A stretch of DNA of 63,790 nt, counting the filler, from Collodictyon triciliatum (lineage: Eukaryota), in assembly GCA_043381765.1 (NCBI GenBank). It is 9 parts of 9 records of this genome, joined end to end, with 100 filler letters (N's around TTAATTAATTAA, not from the genome) between each part and the next. Parts side by side here need not be neighbours in the genome. Positions count along the whole stretch, not along the records: positions 38,861 to 45,203 come from JBHJMP010003469.1; 8 more parts are not named here. One strand, 5' to 3'. Shown in pieces: positions 30,974-50,723 of the stretch; the first letter of the stretch is position 1; every line of letters starts with the position of its first letter. The notes under the pieces are model-generated. The model did no database searches. It was not told the DNA's origin and was given only the letters and a program-made list of their open reading frames with translations. The position numbers and the translations under genes are program-made.

Positions 30974-31046
30974 GCCCGTCTAGCTCAGTCGGTAGAGCGT
31001 GAGGCTCTTAACCTCACGGTCGTGGGTTCGAGCCCCACGGTGGGCG
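30974..31046 (+). tRNA. trnK-CTT: tRNA-Lys, anticodon CTT, intronless
   Basis: GCCCGTC/GGTGGGC acceptor stem, D-arm AGCTCAGTCGGTAGAGC, anticodon arm TGAGG-CTCTTAA-CCTCA, T-arm GTGGG-TTCGAGC-CCCAC, and a downstream T-run terminator. Confidence 0.97.
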
Positions 31047-38760: not shown

Positions 38761-39071
38761 NNNNNNNNNNNNNNNNNNNNNNNNNNNNNNNNNNNNNNNN
38801 NNNNTTAATTAATTAANNNNNNNNNNNNNNNNNNNNNNNNNNNNNNNNNNNNNNNNNNNNTTTGTTTTTTTTTTTGTTTTTTTTTTTTTTTTTTTTGTGG
38901 GGGGGGAGTTGTTGTCTTTGAGAATTTTTTTTTTTTTTTGTTTTCCCCCCCCCCCCCTGATTTTTGTGTGGATGCCTTTTTTTATGCCCCAGTTTTTTGT
39001 ATGTTTATTTATAAGCTGGTCACCAATTAGATGTCTTTCATCACATTAACCCTGCTTATACTTCAAATCAG

Positions 39072-40463
39072 GATTGATTGGCGAATATATCAAAACACTC
39101 CACCTTGACAAGTGCGTTGTTGTTGGCACTTTATTCATGTCAAATTATAGTAGCATTGCGACCGGTGGGACTGTTGTTCAGGTTTATTTTACAATATGAA
39201 AACAATTCGCCCATTTATGAAACGGATAAATAATTCCTTTGTCATCCACATGTGATCTATCTCTTGGATTAATATCTCCTTTTATTGTAGCGAGCACATG
39301 CCTTGAGCCAGATTCTTAATTGTCCAAATGCTGTTTTAGAAAAAGGTGTTGATGGGAACCAGCATATGATCGGTAAATCAGATAATAAAATAAAGACAAC
39401 ATAAAAGGATGATGCCCATAGCTTGCTAGATTTGACATACATTTCCACGATAGATTACAGATTTATTGTAGTATCGTTAGCTATATATTATAAGGCTAAC
39501 GATACTAGGTTTATTTTGGTTTTTTTTTCCTCAAAACTTCTTGTCTCTCCCACCATAACAATCAAATATTATTTTCTTTTAACCCCAGGCGATGTGACTG
39601 ATTCGGATGTCGTGATTATGTCTGATATTCTTGATACTTGCAAGACACTCCTTAGTTCCTTGGATGTTCTTAAGAAGTCAAAGGCAACTTTACTTTATAT
39701 CTTGCGGTTATAGTTTAGATTGATTCATCATAAAGTGATTCCTTATATCAACAAGGAACCCAGACGACAATATTTTTTTTTATTTTTTGCTGAATTTTTT
39801 ATAACTCATCAATACATTATCAATAATATTATTTTTCTGGTCATAGGCAAAACGCTTGATTGCTGTCGGTATTCACCCAATATTCAGCCCAGGGGCTGAC
39901 ATCATACAAACACTGCAAGATTCGTCCCTCGAGAAGATTATAGTTACAAACTCTATTGCGATTCCTGTTGGAAAGTGGTCAAAAGTGATTGTTTATTTTG
40001 CCGTGGCCTACAAATTATTTTGTTAACGACTTCATCGCTGCTTTGATTTGAATTGATTTTTTTTTTTTACCAGCAATCATGCTTCTCTAAACCACATTAG
40101 ATTCATGTCATCGATGTCGCCCCCATCCTTGCTGAGGCTGTGCGTCGTATTCACAACGAGGAGGTTGTGTTTTCTTTCTTTCTTTCTTTCTTTCTTTCCT
40201 TCTTTCCTTCTTTCCTTCTTTCTTTCCTTCTTTCTTTCCTTCTTTCTTTCCTTCTTTCTTTCCTTCTTTCTTTCCTTCTTTCTTTCCTTCTTTCTTTCCT
40301 TCTTTCTTTCCTTCTTTCTTAATATTTATTTCATCCTTTAATCTGTGACTACATATTTGTGTGGCACTCATGAAGAAAGAAAATTAGAGGGGTACAATCG
40401 GGTCACTAAAATCTCTGTCCAACAGAACTTCTAGGGTACCACTTGACGAAGAGCTACGGCTAA
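39072..40463 (+). CDS. Divergent ribose-phosphate pyrophosphokinase (PRPS/PRPSAP-like), C-terminal half
   Basis: RAHALSQILNCPNAVLEK..MIGDVTDSDVVIMSDILDTCKTL..AKRLIAVGIHPIFS..LEKIIVTNSI..IHVIDVAPILAEAVRRIHNEE. Confidence 0.85.
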
Positions 40464-40489
40464 TAAAAACTAAAAATAAAGAAATAAAG

Positions 40490-40546
40490 AAGCGGAACCA
40501 AAAAATTTTTTTCCTTTATTCGATTCAAAGTAAGCGGAGCCTAAAA
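40490..40546 (-). mobile_element. Ultra-truncated retroposon 3' end with diverged TSD
   Basis: AAGCGGAACCAAAAA and AAGCGGAGCCTAAAA flank poly-T plus CCTTTATTCGATTCAAAG. Confidence 0.65.
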
Positions 40547-40599
40547 TAAAATAAAAACCAATTTTTGTTTCTTTTTCCCCCTTAAATTTCTGGTATTCA

Positions 40600-42021
40600 T
40601 TAGAATAAATGACGTGCAATCCTTACAAAATGAATCATGCTTGAATAGTTTGGCACGAAGATGTGGTCTAAGTACACTAGAATATATATATATTCTTTAT
40701 TATTCACTTTGTTCAACAAAGTCATCTCCATTTGGATGAATATCGGCACCAAAAGCTGCGTCCCCTTCGTCTCCGATATCTTGATTTTGAGGCTCGTTAT
40801 CGTCCTCATCCTGGTGTGGGTCTGCATTCTCGAGGTATGGATTTACAAAGTCATCTGCCAACCGAGCAAAGCTAGTGGCAGGTTCTTCGTCTGGCTCTAC
40901 TTCTATGTCATCCTTGGATGCGTTTTCCTTCAAATAACGCGAAACCGTGCATAGGAGTGGAAGAAAAGAAATGGAAGGTGTGGTTGATGAGAGAAATACT
41001 GAGAGGTTCGCCTTCGTGTGGCTAGCTATCATCTGAGTGTGCTTGCTTGATAAAAATAAATGTATGTAATAATGGGTCTGTGTAACAAACGTATAGGTGA
41101 TTGTGTTCCTCGAATAATAAGAAATACTAGTACTAGAACTGACCTTGGAGCGTTTTCTGGGTTTCTTTACTTTTTCCACTGCCCCTTCTTCTTCGAGGAA
41201 ATCTTTGACAACTGAAATCTGCGAATCATACGAGTTTACCTTCACTTGCGTGTTTGTTATATGATGAAATAATCTTGCTTTCGTGTACAGTATTCTGAAT
41301 TTTACTCCATACATACATACATACATACATACATACATACATACATACATACATACATACATACATACATACATACATACATACATACATACATACATAC
41401 ATACATGTCCCCATGAGTATACAAACCATATCAGGTGTTTTGCGCAGAAAAAGATACAGGTCATCTGGTTGCACTCGGTTGCGCCGGGCATGCTTAGCAA
41501 AAAGTCCTAAATCTCGAGCTACCTGGCCTGTGCCGCAACATCTTTAAAAAAAACATTGTATTCTCACAAAGAAGGCACAGGAATGGTGATGGTTCGTGGT
41601 ATGCTGCATACAGCGTGTAACAATGGAGGCGCATATGAAGAGTATGATACGCTATTGATAAAAAGAAAAAAAGAAAAAGGGACGGGAAGGAGCGATGGTA
41701 ATAAACCTGAATGGAAGGTAAGGGTGGTCGCATCGGGTGGGTGGAGGGAGAAAAGAACCTGAGTATTGCAGCACAACTTCAGTAAGAGCGGACACGAACT
41801 GCTTGGTGACCGCCGCGCCCACTTTCGGGCCTGAGTCATGGTGTGAAGTCTGTAAGCATGGGGTTTGAGAACCTCGAGCTTGTCCTTTTCATAGCGAGCC
41901 TAGTCTCACCTTCTTGTTCGCATATTTTAGCGACCGTGTGGTAGACCGAAGCCATTAGCCTCTCATCAAAGGCGGTGCCTTCCGTATCGTTTTGTGCGTT
42001 TCCTTGATCCTCTCCTTCCAT
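40600..42021 (-). CDS. CENPS: Centromere protein S / MHF1 (histone fold) with an acidic C-terminal tail
   Basis: DERLMASVYHTVAKICEQE/GPKVGAAVTKQFVSALTEVVLQYS/GQVARDLGLFAKHARRNRVQPDDLYLFLRK matches the CENP-S histone fold. Stop at 40700 or 40600 depending on the last intron. Confidence 0.88.
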
Positions 42022-42196
42022 CTGGTGCTCTCTCTTTGAGTGGGGAAGCAAGTTATATTGACCGAAAAGGTGATTTTATTATTGCTATGGTCTTGTTTTG
42101 CATGTCACCCGTGCCGCGTGGCGGCGTTGCTGATCGGCTCGACCCGGCTCCACTCGATTGATCATAATTTTTTATTCAGCTTTAATGTAGTTTTTG

Positions 42197-42320
42197 CTAG
42201 AAGAGTTCATATATCTTCCGATTGGCAAACTTGGTGCGCTCGTATCCAAGGTCTCACCACTTTTTTCACAAAGATCGTGTAGTGGTGAAGACTGCCAGGA
42301 AAGACCCGACAGCCTGTTTT
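42197..42320 (-). ncRNA. Putative Fanzor omegaRNA scaffold
   Basis: Nested helices at the 3' end of the Fanzor ORF, minus strand: TCTTTCC/GGAAGA, TGGCA/TGCCA, GTCT(T)CACCACT/AGTGGTGAGAC, CAC/GTG, CTTGG/CCAAG. Confidence 0.6.
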
Positions 42321-44190
42321 TTTAAAGGAAGGTGTATGCATTTTTTGAAGGATTGGAAGAACTTTGTTGAGTATATCATTAGCGCTGTTAAAGTCCATCA
42401 TCAAGAATACAGTTTGTTTGCTTTCTGAGCGATTGCATTCTTAACATATGAGACATATATACAACTTTTTTGTATATCCTTTCGGTATCATATATTCCAG
42501 TTCTTTTTCGCAGTTACAGCACATCTTGAAGGTTCTAAATTCATCTACACTGATTGTTTCAAAACGTTTGGATAGTATTTTTTCGTAATCCTCTTCCGTT
42601 TATTGCCATCAAATGGTTCATCTGAGATTTTCTGCTTCAGTCTCCATACACCAGTACAACACCATCGCCGATTGTCTTTTCCATTCGGTCCATAAACAAT
42701 TTTTCACTTCTTTTTGTATTAACATACTGTCCCCATCTCAACTTTCGAAAAGTTACTTGTTTATAAAATCTGGAAAGTACTATCCGGAATCATAATTCCA
42801 CAGATACATATTATCGAAATTATTCATAATCGACTGTACTTTAATTATGTTTACTCAATTCTGTCTCTAAATCGATTAAAGATACTCTTGATGTCTCAAA
42901 CTGCTGATTCTTTTCAAAAGTCATGTGACCAAAAGAAACAACACTGTGTAAATCTGTTGTCATGCATATAGCTGAAGCCTTGTACTTTTTTTTTCTTGCA
43001 CAAGAGTATTTTTTGATTTTTAAGAGATTTGCTTTCATGTCTTGTTTGATGTGCCGTGTAACGTGATTTCTTACCTGCCTCATCCACCATGCAAACAAAA
43101 TTAAACTTGCCTGCATCCAATCTAACTATTTATTTATTCGCTATTAAAAATAACTGCTCTTCGGAAAGTTCATCTATATAAACAATCCCGGAGTTTTTTT
43201 GATAAAATTGGAATTTTGAATTTGAAATACCTTTTCAAACAATAATAACACCGCCAAACCGTCTGTTTGTATCATGCATTTGAAATTTTAGTCTCATTGA
43301 TGTAAAGGCCCTCTTTTTCATTTCAAAGAACTTATCCCATAGTGTATCTTAGCATCCTGATATATTCTTCATTGATAATGTTTTCCAGTTGATACTAATA
43401 GACTTATCAAACATGCAGTATCTAGAGTTATATGACACGGTATATTGTTAGTTCTTATAGAGATTGGTTGATACAGTTTGGTTCCAATGTCTTAAAAATG
43501 TGATTCATGTATATCAGACATGTAATGTACTTATTTGGATTGACTTTGGTGCCATATTCGATACCATTTACAATATCGCTGAGAATGATATGATGCAAAT
43601 GCATTATAGCCCATCCTTTATATTGTTCAGTATTTCGAGTTTCTTGAAGATAGCTTTTTTTAACTTTCGTAACTCTGCCCTTTTAATGGCTTCCGTCATA
43701 TTCTCATCTTTAGGAACTTTTGATTTATAAAGCGCAGTAACCTCTTTACAAAATGCTCCTTGATTTTATTATGATGAGCTGTGAACATTTGTTTCGCCAA
43801 GTACGGTAATGCATGAGACAGTCTAACCAACAGAAAATGTTCTTATCGGGACAAAAGGAATCGAAAATCATAGATAAAAAGTCATCATATCTTTTCTCAT
43901 ATCTGATCTTTTAAACTTGCGGGTATATCTTGCGGAACTATTCCGAATGTCTTTAAAGCGAACAAAAAACACATTTCATCGATTGTTGGGAGTAGTTGTG
44001 ATTTCTATATGTAACATATTACATACAGATAAGTGTCGGTAACCAAGTTATGACACAATAAAACCGTATCGTTGATTTTGTCGTAGTCATCCGCATTCTT
44101 TACAATCGACTTTAGAGATGTTTTCACATTTCGATAGTATGGTTTTACAGACTTTATATTCTCAGACTCAAGATGTTTTCTTTTCTTCAT
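42310..44190 (-). pseudogene. Fanzor1 (eukaryotic TnpB-like RNA-guided endonuclease), frameshifted and stop-disrupted, about 620 codons
   Basis: Reconstructed across frames: MKKRK..YRNVKTSLKSIVK..KINDTVLLCHNLVTDTY..LPTIDE; LPYLAKQMFTAHHNKIKEHFVKRLLRFIN; RuvC-I IVRLDAGKFNFVCMVDEAGKKSRYTAHQTRHES; LETELSKHN..FYKQVTFRKLRWGQYVNTKRSE; RuvC-II ISVDEFRTFKMCCNC; zinc finger CLIC*EC; RuvC-III MMDFNSANDIL. No introns. Confidence 0.88.
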
Positions 44191-45170
44191 CTGAAAGTTT
44201 TTGTTTTGCTTTTTTCCTTTAGGAAAATACCGAGTTTTCAATTTTAATAAAACTTAAGTCTATTATCAATTTCACAAAAACAACTGCATAAAATCAATTC
44301 AGTTAAAATTAAGCATCTACCAAGACTCTCAAAATGTGCGCATTGTGGAAAACAAACACACAAAGTTTTTTTTTTGTAAATGATTTGAGACAAAACGCTG
44401 AAAGCCGATTCGGCGAGTTCGAAAGGACGGCCGTACAGCCGTTGCGACTGAAAGTCATCATATCGACCCCAAACAACGTGATTACCGCCGCAAGTGTGGA
44501 TAGTATGCTTTTTTGAAATGCATATTTGGTGGTAGAGGGTTTATAGGGTGGGTTCTGTCTGGGCCAAGCCAAGGGCTTGTTTGTAATTTTTGAATATTTG
44601 AACTAATATTTAATAAATGAAAAATAAAATATAAGCTGATTACAGGAATAGAATTGAGATAATGAAGTATTTTTAAGCTTATTATATATACTAATCATAC
44701 TATTATATTATTCAGGTTGCTTCTTGGATTGATCAAAGCTCCTGCTTTCGTCAATCCAGATTTAATTCGATGGTTGTCTGTGCAATAAATCGCCATATGT
44801 GTGGGTACACTTTCGTTGTATGAAAAGTGTTGTGCCTTGAAAGGGATAAAACCGAGTTCGTCACAACCTTTGCGATGAAGTTTATCTATTTACAGGCTGG
44901 ATGAGACCGAAGAGAAAAAGAAAAGAAAAAAGAAAAAAGAAAAAAGAAGAAAAAGAAAAAGAAAAAGAAAAAGAAAAAGAAAAAGAAAAAGAAAAAGAAA
45001 AAGAAAAAGAAAAAGAAAAAAGAAAAAGAAAAAGAAAAAAGAAAAAGAAACAGATGAATGAATCAGAGCAACTAATACTGAGCACTATAATCATAATTAT
45101 CTCGCTACCCGTGGGTGGATGGCCTTAAATTTGATAGGTCTTTCTTATTCCTCTTTATTATTATTATTAC

Positions 45171-45203
<33 letters not shown>

Positions 45204-45303
45204 NNNNNNNNNNNNNNNNNNNNNNNNNNNNNNNNNNNNNNNNNNNNTTAATTAATTAANNNNNNNNNNNNNNNNNNNNNNNNNNNNNNNNNNNNNNNNN
45301 NNN

Positions 45304-45348
<45 letters not shown>

Positions 45349-45466: not shown

Positions 45467-48400
45467 TCAAGAATACGGGTTTGGCCTGTAAGCGGCCTGG
45501 TTCATGTCTGGATATGGGTATGGATAGGGACACGGATTGGCATAAGGGGCCATCCCTGGTTGCATGATGGCCTGCATGTTCATGCCGTATGGAACCAGGG
45601 CACCGGGTTGCGGAAGTCCCATCCCCATCGACTGGCTGCCGGCACTCAACGAGTAGTTTGGGCGCACAGGAGGTTGCATGGACGTGTGGGGCTGGACTTG
45701 GGGAGTGAGAACAGCGGACGACATCTGCGCCCCTGGCGGTGGCGGTGTGCTCTTCTGTTGCGTAGGGCCCAGAAGAGAATCTACATCATTCTAGTTGCAC
45801 AGATATTAAAAGCTTTTGAGCCAAGGATGTAACCAGCTTCAATTCGGACACTTTTACAAAGCACAGATACATTCATCAGATTCAAAGGAGGATTCAAAAT
45901 AAATAAGTAAATAAATAAATAAAAATGTATGAATTGTTATCAGAGTTAATATATCATATGCTGCTTTGTGTTCGAAAGAATATATCTGAAACCGGGAGTG
46001 TCGTGCGGCGTTGGGAGCTGTTCACCGTTGAGACAGGAGCTTTGCTTGGCTCATTCACTTCTCCAAATAGTTCGTCGAAAGTGTCATCTGAAGGCGTAGA
46101 TTTTTTTGCCTTTCCTTTACGGCTGAAAGATGGCTCTGGTTCTGTGGCGAGGTCCTTAGATTTTGCTTTCTCTTGCTTCTCGATGGCCTTGGAGGAGACT
46201 TTCCCTTGTTTCTTCTTTCGCTCGCCTGAATCCATGTTCTCCTTGACTGACTTTTTGGCATCAACATTTGTGGAAGACTTTGACTTTGACTTTTGCTTCA
46301 CAACTTCTTCCTCACTTTCATTCTCTGAACTAGAATCTTTCTTCGATTTAGATTTAGACGATGCATTCTCTTTGCTCCTTCCTTTACTTTTAACTTTGGT
46401 TGCAGGGGGTGTCACCTCGTCTCCTTCAGAGTTATATTCTTTTTTGGCCCTGGAGGAGGCCTTTGGCTTGCTCTTGGTTTTTTGGGGGGCTCCGATATCT
46501 TCCTTTTGATACTCCTCATCAGTGCTTTCATCAGAGTTTGCTGCTTTTTTTGAAGTAAGATTGCCTTTGGTGCCTTTCTTTGAGGATGGTCTTACTTTTT
46601 TATCTTCATCACTGTCATCTGATGCATCAGCAGCTTTACCTTTTCTTGTTTCTTTAGACTTCACCCTCGCTTTGACTTTCGCTTTGCTCTTAGCTTCGTA
46701 GTGCTCATCAGATTCATCACTATCACTCGAAGATGCAGCTTTTAAAGACACCTTTCGATTCGCACGTTTCTTTGATTTTGGGGGAACCTTATCCTCTGAA
46801 CTTTCCAAATCACTAGAATCTGAATTTGTTGCGTCGCTGTTCTTGTAAAAATCAGACAAATCAGACTCGTCAAAGACGGGAGAATCATCTGATATAGGGG
46901 AATCCGAGGTTGTTTTTTTGTGTGGAGGTGCCGAAGATTTCTTCGCTTGTGATTTCTTCTTAATCGATGCGCGAGCGGTTTCTTTATCGGAATCCTCAGA
47001 TACGTCAGACTCGTCATTTAATCGCTTCAGGACCTTTTAGATTAGGAAATTATTTTCAGAGGAAAAAAAAATTAAATTAACTTTAAAATTGACTAATAGT
47101 CATACTTCAGTGCAAAATAATCAAGAGTCCTTATATGATATGGTCAGTAATTTGAAATGAAAGAATGACAAAGCAAAAACATACAGCTGACATACACAAA
47201 AAATAAAAATAAAAATCATGGCAATGTGGGTCCCGTTTTCTAATGAGGAGGGAGGTAAACCTTCTTGGCCTTATCGCGAACAGAAGCTTGAGGAGTTTGG
47301 AGTGTATCCTCAATGAAGTCAGATGAACGAGAGAAGAGTGGTTTGTAAGTGTTTTCTTCATACTTTAGTAGGCCATCGATAAAATAGAGGCATTTCTGTG
47401 AGTTCAGATGGTTAGAATAATGAACATAATTTAGTAAATCTAAGAAAAAAATATTGATATAGTTATTCGTGCGCTCCCGATGACGATTTTCTTGTTAGCT
47501 ATATGTGCGTTATTATTTTATATAAACACAAACAAACAAACAAACAAACAAACAAACAAACAAACAAACAAACAAACAAACAAACAAACAAACAAACAAA
47601 CAAACAAACAAACAAACAAACAAATAAATAAATAAATAAACAGACAAATTTTATTGAACAACTCACAAGGCGAACTTGCCACTCAGGGTTTTCCAAAGTT
47701 CGTAAAAGTAAGCGGGCAAGTTTCTTTTTGTTCAACGACTCCGAATAAGTGTGAAATAATTTTATCGATTCAGGGGGAGGACTCACGCGTGTATTTGGAT
47801 TTAAAATGGCAGCATCAATTAATCTCTCTTCAGGAGTTCTATTTAAAAATATTAGTTTGTGTTGAGAAATAATAATACACAATTATATATTTTAGAAAAA
47901 TAAATAAAGCCTGTCACTAAGCATTTCGTTGTTATCTTTCCAAATGGGACCTTGCACTGGTGTTTGTTAAAGAGGTGTCAGGATTCGGGCTAGTAGCCTC
48001 GTCTGTATTAGAAAAGGATATAAACGGACAAGTTAAAAGGGGGATAGACTGAGAAACAGGGTATCAAAAAGAAAAATGAAACAAAGAAAATTTCTATTTA
48101 ATCAACTTGACTTCTATTGCGCCAAGTGTAGGAACAGTATACAAAAATAAAAACAGAAAATGACACAAACCTGCTTTGCTACGGCGAATATTAGATATAA
48201 AATCTGGATTTTAACGAGCCAATTTAGTTTGTAGTATGAATCAGTTTAAGAGTAGGGAGATATATATGATTCTATGAAAATCTTATTTGATTACCCAGAT
48301 GATGTAAAGATAAGATAATACGAAATAGCTCTTACCAACAGCTCCAGAAAAAGACCATCGAGATGAAGAATTGTCATGATGTATATCCCCAGAGCTAGAT

Positions 48401-50209: not shown

Positions 50210-50723
50210 TTAAAGTCTCATGATTTATTCCTTCTGAAAGGTGTGTGTGTGTGTGNNNNNNNNNNNNNNNNNNNNNNNNNNNNNNNNNNNNNNNNNNNNN
50301 NNNNNNNNNNNNNNNNNNNNNNNNNNNNNNNNNNNNNNNNNNNNNNNNNNNNNNNNNNNNNNNNNNNNNNNNNNNNNNNNNNNNNNNNNNNNNNNNNNNN
50401 NNNNNNNNNNNNNNNNNNNNNNNNNNNNNNNNNNNNNNNNNNNNNNNNNNNNNNNNNNNNNNNNNNNNNNNNNNNNNNNNNNNNNNNNNNNNNNNNNNNN
50501 NNNNNNNNNNNNNNNNNNNNNNNNNNNNNNNNNNNNNNNNNNNNNNNNNNNNNNNNNNNNNNNNNNNNNNNNNNNNNNNNNNNNNNNNNNNNNNNNNNNN
50601 NNNNNNNNNNNNNNNNNNNNNNNNNNNNNNNNNNNNNNNNNNNNNNNNNNNNNNNNNNNNNNNNNNNNNNNNNNNNNNNNNNNNNNNNNNNNNNNNNNNN
50701 NNNNNNNNNNNNNNNNNNNNNNN

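Follow-up and report, generated by a model that had tools for sequence, protein, structure and literature searches.

A Fanzor1 pseudogene in a decayed copy of a repeated element upstream of a CENP-S-like gene in Collodictyon triciliatum

Fanzor1 proteins are known from fungi, protists, arthropods, plants and giant viruses, according to the accessible part of PMC10432273. The accessible part of PMC10530073 reports an association with transposons, Mariner among others, ties Fanzor2 to IS607-like elements and catalogues 3,655 Fanzors in all. An integrating giant virus whose Fanzor elements can move in its algal host has also been described (PMC13359090, in the portion available). Solved Fanzor1 structures include those of Spizellomyces punctatus (SpuFz1, 8gkh), Parasitella parasitica (PpFz1, 9cf0) and Guillardia theta (GtFz1, 9cer). 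Here we analyse a stretch of 63,790 nucleotides from Collodictyon triciliatum (assembly GCA_043381765.1), made of nine parts joined by filler and called the window below. A first inspection of the bare DNA, hereafter the sequence-only reading, had proposed that one of these parts (JBHJMP010003469.1, positions 38,861 to 45,203) hides the relic of a Fanzor1 gene on its minus strand. We conclude, with a probability of about 90%, that positions 42266-44190 are a Fanzor1 pseudogene, and that it belongs to a decayed copy of a repeat of about 2.7 kb whose insertion point lies just upstream of a CENP-S-like, spliced host gene.

The longest stop-to-stop open reading frame (ORF) in 42200-44253 encodes only 94 amino acids, so that the relic is indeed visible only as short fragments. 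The sequence-only reading had stitched these into a full-length intronless protein and had proposed a frameshift-aware search as a check. When such an alignment was computed by dynamic programming, the minus strand from 44190 (the ATG of MKKRK) to 42260 was collinear with residues 1-648 of P0001, an intact metagenome protein of 648 aa and the closest intact relative of the relic. The two were identical at 356 of 650 columns, with five residues missing from the relic and two inserted, and no intron-sized gap was found over the full 648 residues. The proposed start at 44190 was thus retained, while the extent had to be revised: the read-through encodes about 646 aa rather than about 620, and it ends at a terminal TGA (42266-42268) and not at 42310. 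With X at each break, the read-through reached 55% identity with both P0001 and its cluster mate P0007 over 648 columns. In a set of 5.8 billion proteins, the frame-1 read-through of 42100-44190 had P0001 as its best match (E 1e-109), and 5 proteins among 4,967 candidates reached E <= 0.01. Since this single frame scores so well in so large a set, a chance likeness between the relic and P0001 is excluded.

The reading frame could not give an active enzyme, which agrees with the word relic in the sequence-only reading. It is interrupted by 10 internal stops (at 44005, 43843, 43349, 43130, 42841, 42820, 42811, 42790, 42637 and 42441; one TAG, seven TAA and two TGA) and by 11 frameshifts, seven of which have lost a base and four of which have gained one. 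Residues conserved in the family are also replaced, namely the invariant P365 (by A), the invariant S559 (by F) and the nearly invariant R603 (by M). One could argue that the gene is alive, its breaks being assembly errors, programmed frameshifts or the mark of a variant genetic code, and 6 of the 11 frameshifts do fall at runs of at least four identical bases, which are error-prone in long-read assemblies. However, the other 5 lie outside such homopolymers, and residues that are invariant or at least 90% conserved in the relatives are replaced. Furthermore, the stops are of all three kinds and stand opposite differing P0001 residues (L, Q, R, K, S, K, E, R, W and K), and therefore no single recoding accounts for them. 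We thus consider a living gene very improbable, and the relic belongs to Fanzor1 by descent, not by function.

Assignment to Fanzor1 was made through the intact relatives. Compared with the solved structures (177,635 distinct sequences), P0001 matched GtFz1 (2.1e-28), PpFz1 (2.7e-24) and SpuFz1 (3.7e-23), the next match being myoglobin at 0.38. A profile of 63 relatives over 614 positions (A2) gave stronger scores, of 6.6e-109 for SpuFz1 (positions 9-600 of 614), 5.3e-107 for PpFz1 and 5.9e-83 for GtFz1. Beyond Fanzor1 it reached only LaTranC (1.5e-4) and the TnpB of ISDra2 (0.7), and it matched no Fanzor2 chain among the solved structures at E <= 1. The AlphaFold2 model of P0001, built on A2, had a mean pLDDT of 88 and a pTM of 0.86. 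Its seven best Foldseek matches were all Fanzor1 (TMq 0.61-0.77), headed by SpuFz1 (E 4e-28, TM 0.77/0.82), and were followed by a Cas12 (5e-7, TM 0.34). The Fanzor1 fold, with its WED, enlarged REC, RuvC and TNB domains, is therefore predicted to be present in P0001. The full-length similarity of the relic to characterised Fanzor1 proteins passes through P0001 and A2, to both of which it is tied by alignment. Taken raw, its N-terminal piece had GtFz1 as its best match among solved structures, at only E 0.11, with SHALPYLAKQMFTAHHNKIKEHFVKRLLRFI aligned to the corresponding GtFz1 helix; the NNIKxHFxxRL block aligns to GtFz1. The blocks VKTSLKSIV and HHNKIKEHFVKRLLRFIN, on which the sequence-only reading had relied for its Fanzor1 assignment, are both present on the minus strand and match conserved blocks of the family. 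The proposed Fanzor1 identity is supported.

The same comparisons bear on the possibility that the relic is a Fanzor2, a prokaryotic TnpB or a bacterial contaminant. The relatives weakly match the TNB zinc ribbon that is common to the TnpB/Cas12 superfamily: PF07282 (Cas12f1-like TNB) was above its cut-off in P0005 only (26.9 bits against 26.3); P0003 and P0004 stayed below it, and P0001 and P0002 had no match. The Pfam accession PF26935 is precomputed on all five proteins first matched by the frame-1 read-through. Nevertheless, neither Fanzor2 nor TnpB came closer than Fanzor1, either with the A2 profile (see the E-values above) or with Foldseek, where the P0001 model gave a TM of 0.20/0.26 for Fanzor2 (9b0l) and 0.20/0.32 for TnpB, against 0.77/0.82 for SpuFz1. 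Contamination is at odds with flanks that are eukaryotic and hold spliced introns. We regard this as the least probable of the alternatives. The relic is a dead member of the already known Fanzor1 kind.

The catalytic residues survived the decay. In the 63 relatives D364 and E555 are invariant, and D604 and R603 are each at least 90% conserved. The relic keeps the RuvC-I aspartate, the glutamate that serves RuvC-II and the RuvC-III aspartate, and the three codons picked out by the sequence-only reading correspond exactly to D364, E555 and D604 (Table 1). As that reading had also stated, CxxC pairs lie between RuvC-II and RuvC-III (42510-42521 and 42435-42446); all four cysteine codons are kept, and a TAA stands between the last two. 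Fanzors have been described, in the accessible part of PMC10530073, as having a rearranged RuvC-II with Gly or Pro at the canonical Glu position and a conserved Glu about 45 residues downstream. The relic appears to fit this pattern, if G521 is taken from the alignment as the canonical position: its Gly codon is kept at 42643-42645, and E555 lies 34 residues downstream. The MKKRK start is shared with P0001, and further relatives of the relic have lysine-rich starts as well; a role as nuclear localisation signal (NLS) is predicted.

Table 1. Features of the relic, of the repeated element and of the adjoining host gene (window coordinates).
Feature	Position	Strand	Basis and remarks
Fanzor1 pseudogene	42266..44190	-	Intronless read-through of ~646 codons; frameshift-aware alignment to P0001
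Basic N-terminus MKKRK, NLS-like (predicted)	44176..44190	-	P0001 starts MKKRKR
RuvC-I aspartate codon GAT in LDAGK	43115..43117	-	Aligns to invariant D364; adjoining invariant P365 is Ala
G-D-stop in place of the GDW of relatives	42637..42645	-	Gly at invariant G521 of GDWS; TGA replaces Trp
Alternative RuvC-II glutamate codon GAA in VDEFRT	42540..42542	-	Aligns to invariant E555
Zinc-finger (TNB-like) segment	42435..42521	-	Cys codons 42519-42521, 42510-42512, 42444-42446, 42435-42437
RuvC-III aspartate codon GAC in MDFNSAND	42393..42395	-	Aligns to D604; preceding R603 is Met
Upstream part of repeat, ~700 nt	44191..44895	-	X5 contig bridging; depth high up to 44895
3' tail to repeat end, expected site of guide-RNA scaffold end	42204..42265	-	Coverage by repeat contigs begins at 42204 (X1) or within the 42227 bin (X5)
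Spliced CENP-S-like host gene, directly downstream of the relic along the minus strand	40500-42212	-	X5 contigs, Pfam

The relic is one copy of a multi-copy repeat. Contigs of two other data sets, one from a coded organism (X5) and one from a freshwater metagenome (X1), were placed on 40500-45200 in numbers of 441 and 122, respectively, with 85-99% likeness. The summed depth of X5 contigs over 42227-44895 was 82-524 in 16 of 17 bins and 67 in the remaining one, and it fell to 0-23 in those covering 40500 to 42226. X5 contigs also bridged 44101-44514 and 44488-44777, joining the start of the ORF to the 700 nt or so upstream of it, and the repeat is therefore estimated at about 2.7 kb (about 42204-44895). 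At least 3 of the 10 stops differ in other copies (42637, where a C gives TGG on the minus strand, 43349-43351 and 42841-42843), and at least 4 of the 11 frameshifts (near 42581, 43629, 43718 and 43870) coincide with indels there (42578, 43627/43629, 43718 and 43871). Other copies are thus without at least 7 of the 21 lesions, and part of the damage is therefore private to this copy. The pile-up of contigs over 42204-44895 only supports the view, already put forward in the sequence-only reading, that this lineage hosts a Fanzor family. Within the window itself no second copy of the relic was found, either with P0001 (other matches at E >= 2) or by blastn of the element. The upstream part, 44191..44895, gave no Pfam match on its two minus-strand ORFs and no coding signal, and held no remnant of the viral neighbour genes described below. 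The interval 44425-44895 had the highest X5 summed depth (268-524), above most of the ORF, and could be a distinct repeat or one of higher abundance. Eight sequencing runs share 0.05-0.10 of the sampled words of the stretch, none reaching half, and hints on habitat rest on four runs.

X5 contigs also reveal what lies next to the element. They skip 40926-41143, 41218-41427 and 41526-41758 with CT..AC ends, which therefore correspond to three GT..AG introns of a minus-strand gene. The exon at 41226-41543 matched the Pfam family CENP-S (E 3.6e-10, 40.5 bits). The relic is thus the immediate upstream neighbour of a spliced host gene, and the genome is that of a eukaryote with spliceosomal introns.

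An exhaustive HMMER search gave 3,147 cluster representatives at E <= 1e-3, 537 of them at E <= 1e-30. By pattern scan, relatives occurred in at least 527 of 597 matched metagenome stretches, among the matches listed, and in 538 of 595 matched IMG/VR stretches; many sit on contigs named as giant-virus metagenome-assembled genomes (MAGs), of up to 289 kb. Two of five viral records were searchable, and each held one Fanzor1 match together with capsid genes of nucleocytoplasmic large DNA viruses (NCLDV; E about 5e-54). In all 160 loci that were fetched, the Fanzor ORF was open and at least 550 aa long, and 139 of these ORFs are unique. The 80 loci taken from the metagenome scan do not include the contig of P0001. 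The relic read-through was 32-36% identical to these ORFs among the matches listed (58 of the 139 unique ones). A tree of 87 rows was computed. Besides the relic it holds 47 proteins from databases and 39 locus ORFs taken from the 139 unique ones (nine top matches and 30 drawn at random); it is the unrooted product of a quick IQ-TREE search under LG+G4, on a sample biased to viral collections. The relic grouped with P0001 and P0007 (support 100), then with P0022 (92), then with a clade whose eight rows come from IMG/VR viral contigs or from metagenome contigs (97). On these proteins the viral clade appears to be the sister of the relic clade. We found no literature specific to the relic clade in a search that left the supplementary tables of the cited catalogues outside.

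This viral sister group raises the question of whether the relic is a piece of a giant-virus genome that had become integrated (an endogenous viral element), rather than a transposon copy resident in the host. Such an origin would agree with the position of the eight rows in the tree, with the co-occurrence of NCLDV capsid genes and a Fanzor1 homologue in 2 of the 2 searchable viral records, and with the movement of Fanzor elements between an alga and the giant virus that integrates into it, as reported in the available portion of PMC13359090. However, only about 2.7 kb are repeated, and they are flanked by the intron-bearing CENP-S-like host gene. Moreover, blastx of the whole window against ORFs of the fetched loci gave 789 high-scoring segment pairs, all inside the relic and none outside, in a limited reference set (3,765 ORFs, 2.05 Mb) that covers only +/-10 kb around Fanzor genes; within that set no giant-virus gene was found beside the relic, and its neighbour is the spliced CENP-S homologue. 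The many diverged copies fit transposition better. An endogenous virus is thus improbable in our opinion, though less so than a living gene, and we retain a decayed copy of a repeated element as the preferred reading.

The viral relatives provide a picture of what an intact element may look like. A coiled-coil ORF of 93 aa, rich in Lys and Glu and without Pfam match, lies within 4 kb upstream in 87 of the 139 loci, at a median of 61 nt from the Fanzor gene, with which it nearly always shares its strand (e.g. L099:2603-2884 (+)). A second cluster of neighbour ORFs, of about 338 aa, was found within 4 kb in 35 of the 139 loci, upstream and on the opposite strand in nearly all; it also contains a few Fanzor paralogues. 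Two of its members were scanned with Pfam and both matched DDE_3 (1.1e-15 and 1.3e-13), the family of an IS630/Tc1-mariner-like transposase with a helix-turn-helix domain (e.g. L146:7363-8379 (-) and L081:8638-9678 (-)). The motif GGTGT[AG]A occurs at most 210 nt past the stop codon in 126 of the 139 loci, mostly at 70-90 nt, and similarity between loci ends abruptly at this right end. The inverse motif was present within 4 kb upstream in 85 of the 126, at about 400-499 nt in 41 loci (406 nt upstream of the ORF in L006) and at about 1,370 nt in L003, L081 and L083; the L081 interval encloses the transposase. Terminal inverted repeats of about 30 nt, with the right end ...GGCGTTTTAAATG..AAAGGTGTAA, were recognised by eye in many of the viral loci inspected. 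On some viral contigs there is a second Fanzor1 paralogue, which has diverged from the first and lies about 3.3 kb from it (L124:4903-6777 (-), L111:15129-16535 (+)).

An RNA-like module overlaps the stop codon of the viral genes (alignment A5: L006:11801-11950 and 41 other loci). Of 581 cells, 97.9% were paired, against 31-56% with slid partners, and 58 cells carried double changes, against 2-7 in the slid controls; the covariation score was reached by 0 of 500 shuffles. Three helices of the module have compensatory changes, and RNAalifold alone recovered only stem 1. A proposed third stem did not hold in the alignment and was dropped. By analogy with the Fanzor1 guide-RNA scaffold, which ends at the transposon end (PMC10432273, accessible part), this viral element fits a guide-RNA scaffold ending at the end of the transposon.

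Several observations have to be set against our interpretation of the relic. A Pfam search of its three raw minus-strand frames, with stops as X, gave no family at E <= 1. The C-terminal piece, 42207-42599, had none of its 98 candidates scored among the longer proteins of the set of 5.8 billion, and gave only noise (E 0.84) with the solved structures. Nothing convincing was found when terminal inverted or direct repeats were sought around the element: 55 of 300 shuffles scored as well in local alignment of its two ends, and 223 of 300 did so when the viral right end (RE) was compared with the 3' end in the window. Hidden Markov models (HMMs) built for the three viral neighbour genes that occur most often recovered no transposase or small-ORF remnant from the window translated in six-frame pieces; their best E was 0.31, and near the relic no match fell below E 3. 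A covariance model of the viral 3' element (R1) gave 28 matches at E <= 10 in the whole window, none of them at the 3' end of the relic, the best (E 0.08) being away from it. Furthermore, contig depth is not copy number, that X5 consists of RNA is only a guess, and P0001 is a metagenome protein that may come from a host or from a virus.

The 3' end of the relic was also searched on its own. Targeted to 401 nt, R1 had its best match at 42256-42286 (4.7 bits, E 0.36). The last 201 nt of the relic fold with a z of -2.58, a value equalled by 4 of 200 shuffles, which is suggestive only. By eye, GUCUUCAC...GAAAAAAGU...GAGAC in the relic had been likened to the stem-1 module of the viruses; this candidate was rejected, as the statistics give it no support.

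If the ancestral protein acted like the characterised Fanzor1 enzymes, its history may be pictured as follows. An element of about 2.7 kb would have inserted just upstream of the CENP-S-like host gene; its 3' end would have been transcribed into a guide RNA, which would have directed the cutting of matching DNA adjoining a short motif, through the D / alternative-E / D RuvC site. The decayed copy in the window can no longer make such a protein. We infer the mobility of the element, the guide-RNA mechanism in this lineage and any giant-virus link. A more tentative proposal, which we hold to be possible but rather doubtful, is that the repeated element has been exchanged between freshwater giant viruses and this lineage, and that less decayed copies are still transcribed in coded organism A. 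Were the exchange real, the window would represent one endpoint of a route between viruses and hosts that is used by transposons with RNA-guided nucleases.

Other features of the window were noted around these main subjects. An acidic tail of the CENP-S-like gene is encoded around 40700-40900, and 41883-42212 was matched with 0-1 differences by contigs of an aquaculture metagenome and of a lake metatranscriptome. The element is flanked by microsatellites, (CATA)25 at 41308-41406, (AGAAAA)23 at 44913-45054, (GT)21 at 45304-45345 and (ACAA)30 at 47528-47648. On the minus strand, a frame of 360 aa is open at 45954-47036; it abounds in Ser, Lys, Asp and Glu, has no Pfam match and could be an exon belonging to a host gene that lies upstream of the element. 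A tRNA-Lys (CTT) on the plus strand at 30974-31046 was the sole Rfam or ARAGORN match in the window. Runs of N occur, for example at 45204-45303 and over most of about 50250-50720.

Because Fanzor1 is already widely known and thousands of Fanzors are catalogued, one more dead copy changes little. The relic nevertheless flags a lineage rich in copies of a Fanzor1 element, and it adds a data point on the traffic of elements between giant viruses and their hosts, a theme already published (PMC13359090, in the portion available). For work on the enzyme, the intact P0001 and the viral sister group, with its clear transposon ends and covarying 3' RNA, are better starting points than the relic.

Among known systems, Fanzor2 (ApmFz2 of Acanthamoeba polyphaga mimivirus, 9b0l) and the TnpB of IS200/605 elements (ISDra2, 8h1j) share the RuvC and zinc-ribbon core, an RNA-guided mechanism and the rearranged RuvC-II glutamate reported for Fanzors (PMC10530073) with Fanzor1; however, they are much smaller proteins with only marginal similarity in sequence and fold. 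The Fanzor1 copies of giant viruses (IMG/VR, GVMAG) have the same length and the same conserved residues as the relic. Unlike it they are intact, and none of their terminal inverted repeats, DDE_3 neighbours, 93-aa ORF and covarying 3' RNA was detected in the window. In comparison with the characterised Fanzor1 proteins, the copy in the window is dead, no transposon ends, target-adjacent motif or significant guide-RNA scaffold were identified for it, and identity in the structural alignment is about 20% (for P0001). The profile of relatives matches SpuFz1 over its full length, the P0001 model has the same fold, and the relic shares with SpuFz1, PpFz1 and GtFz1 the D / alternative-E / D site, the glycine at G521, the zinc finger and the basic N-terminus.

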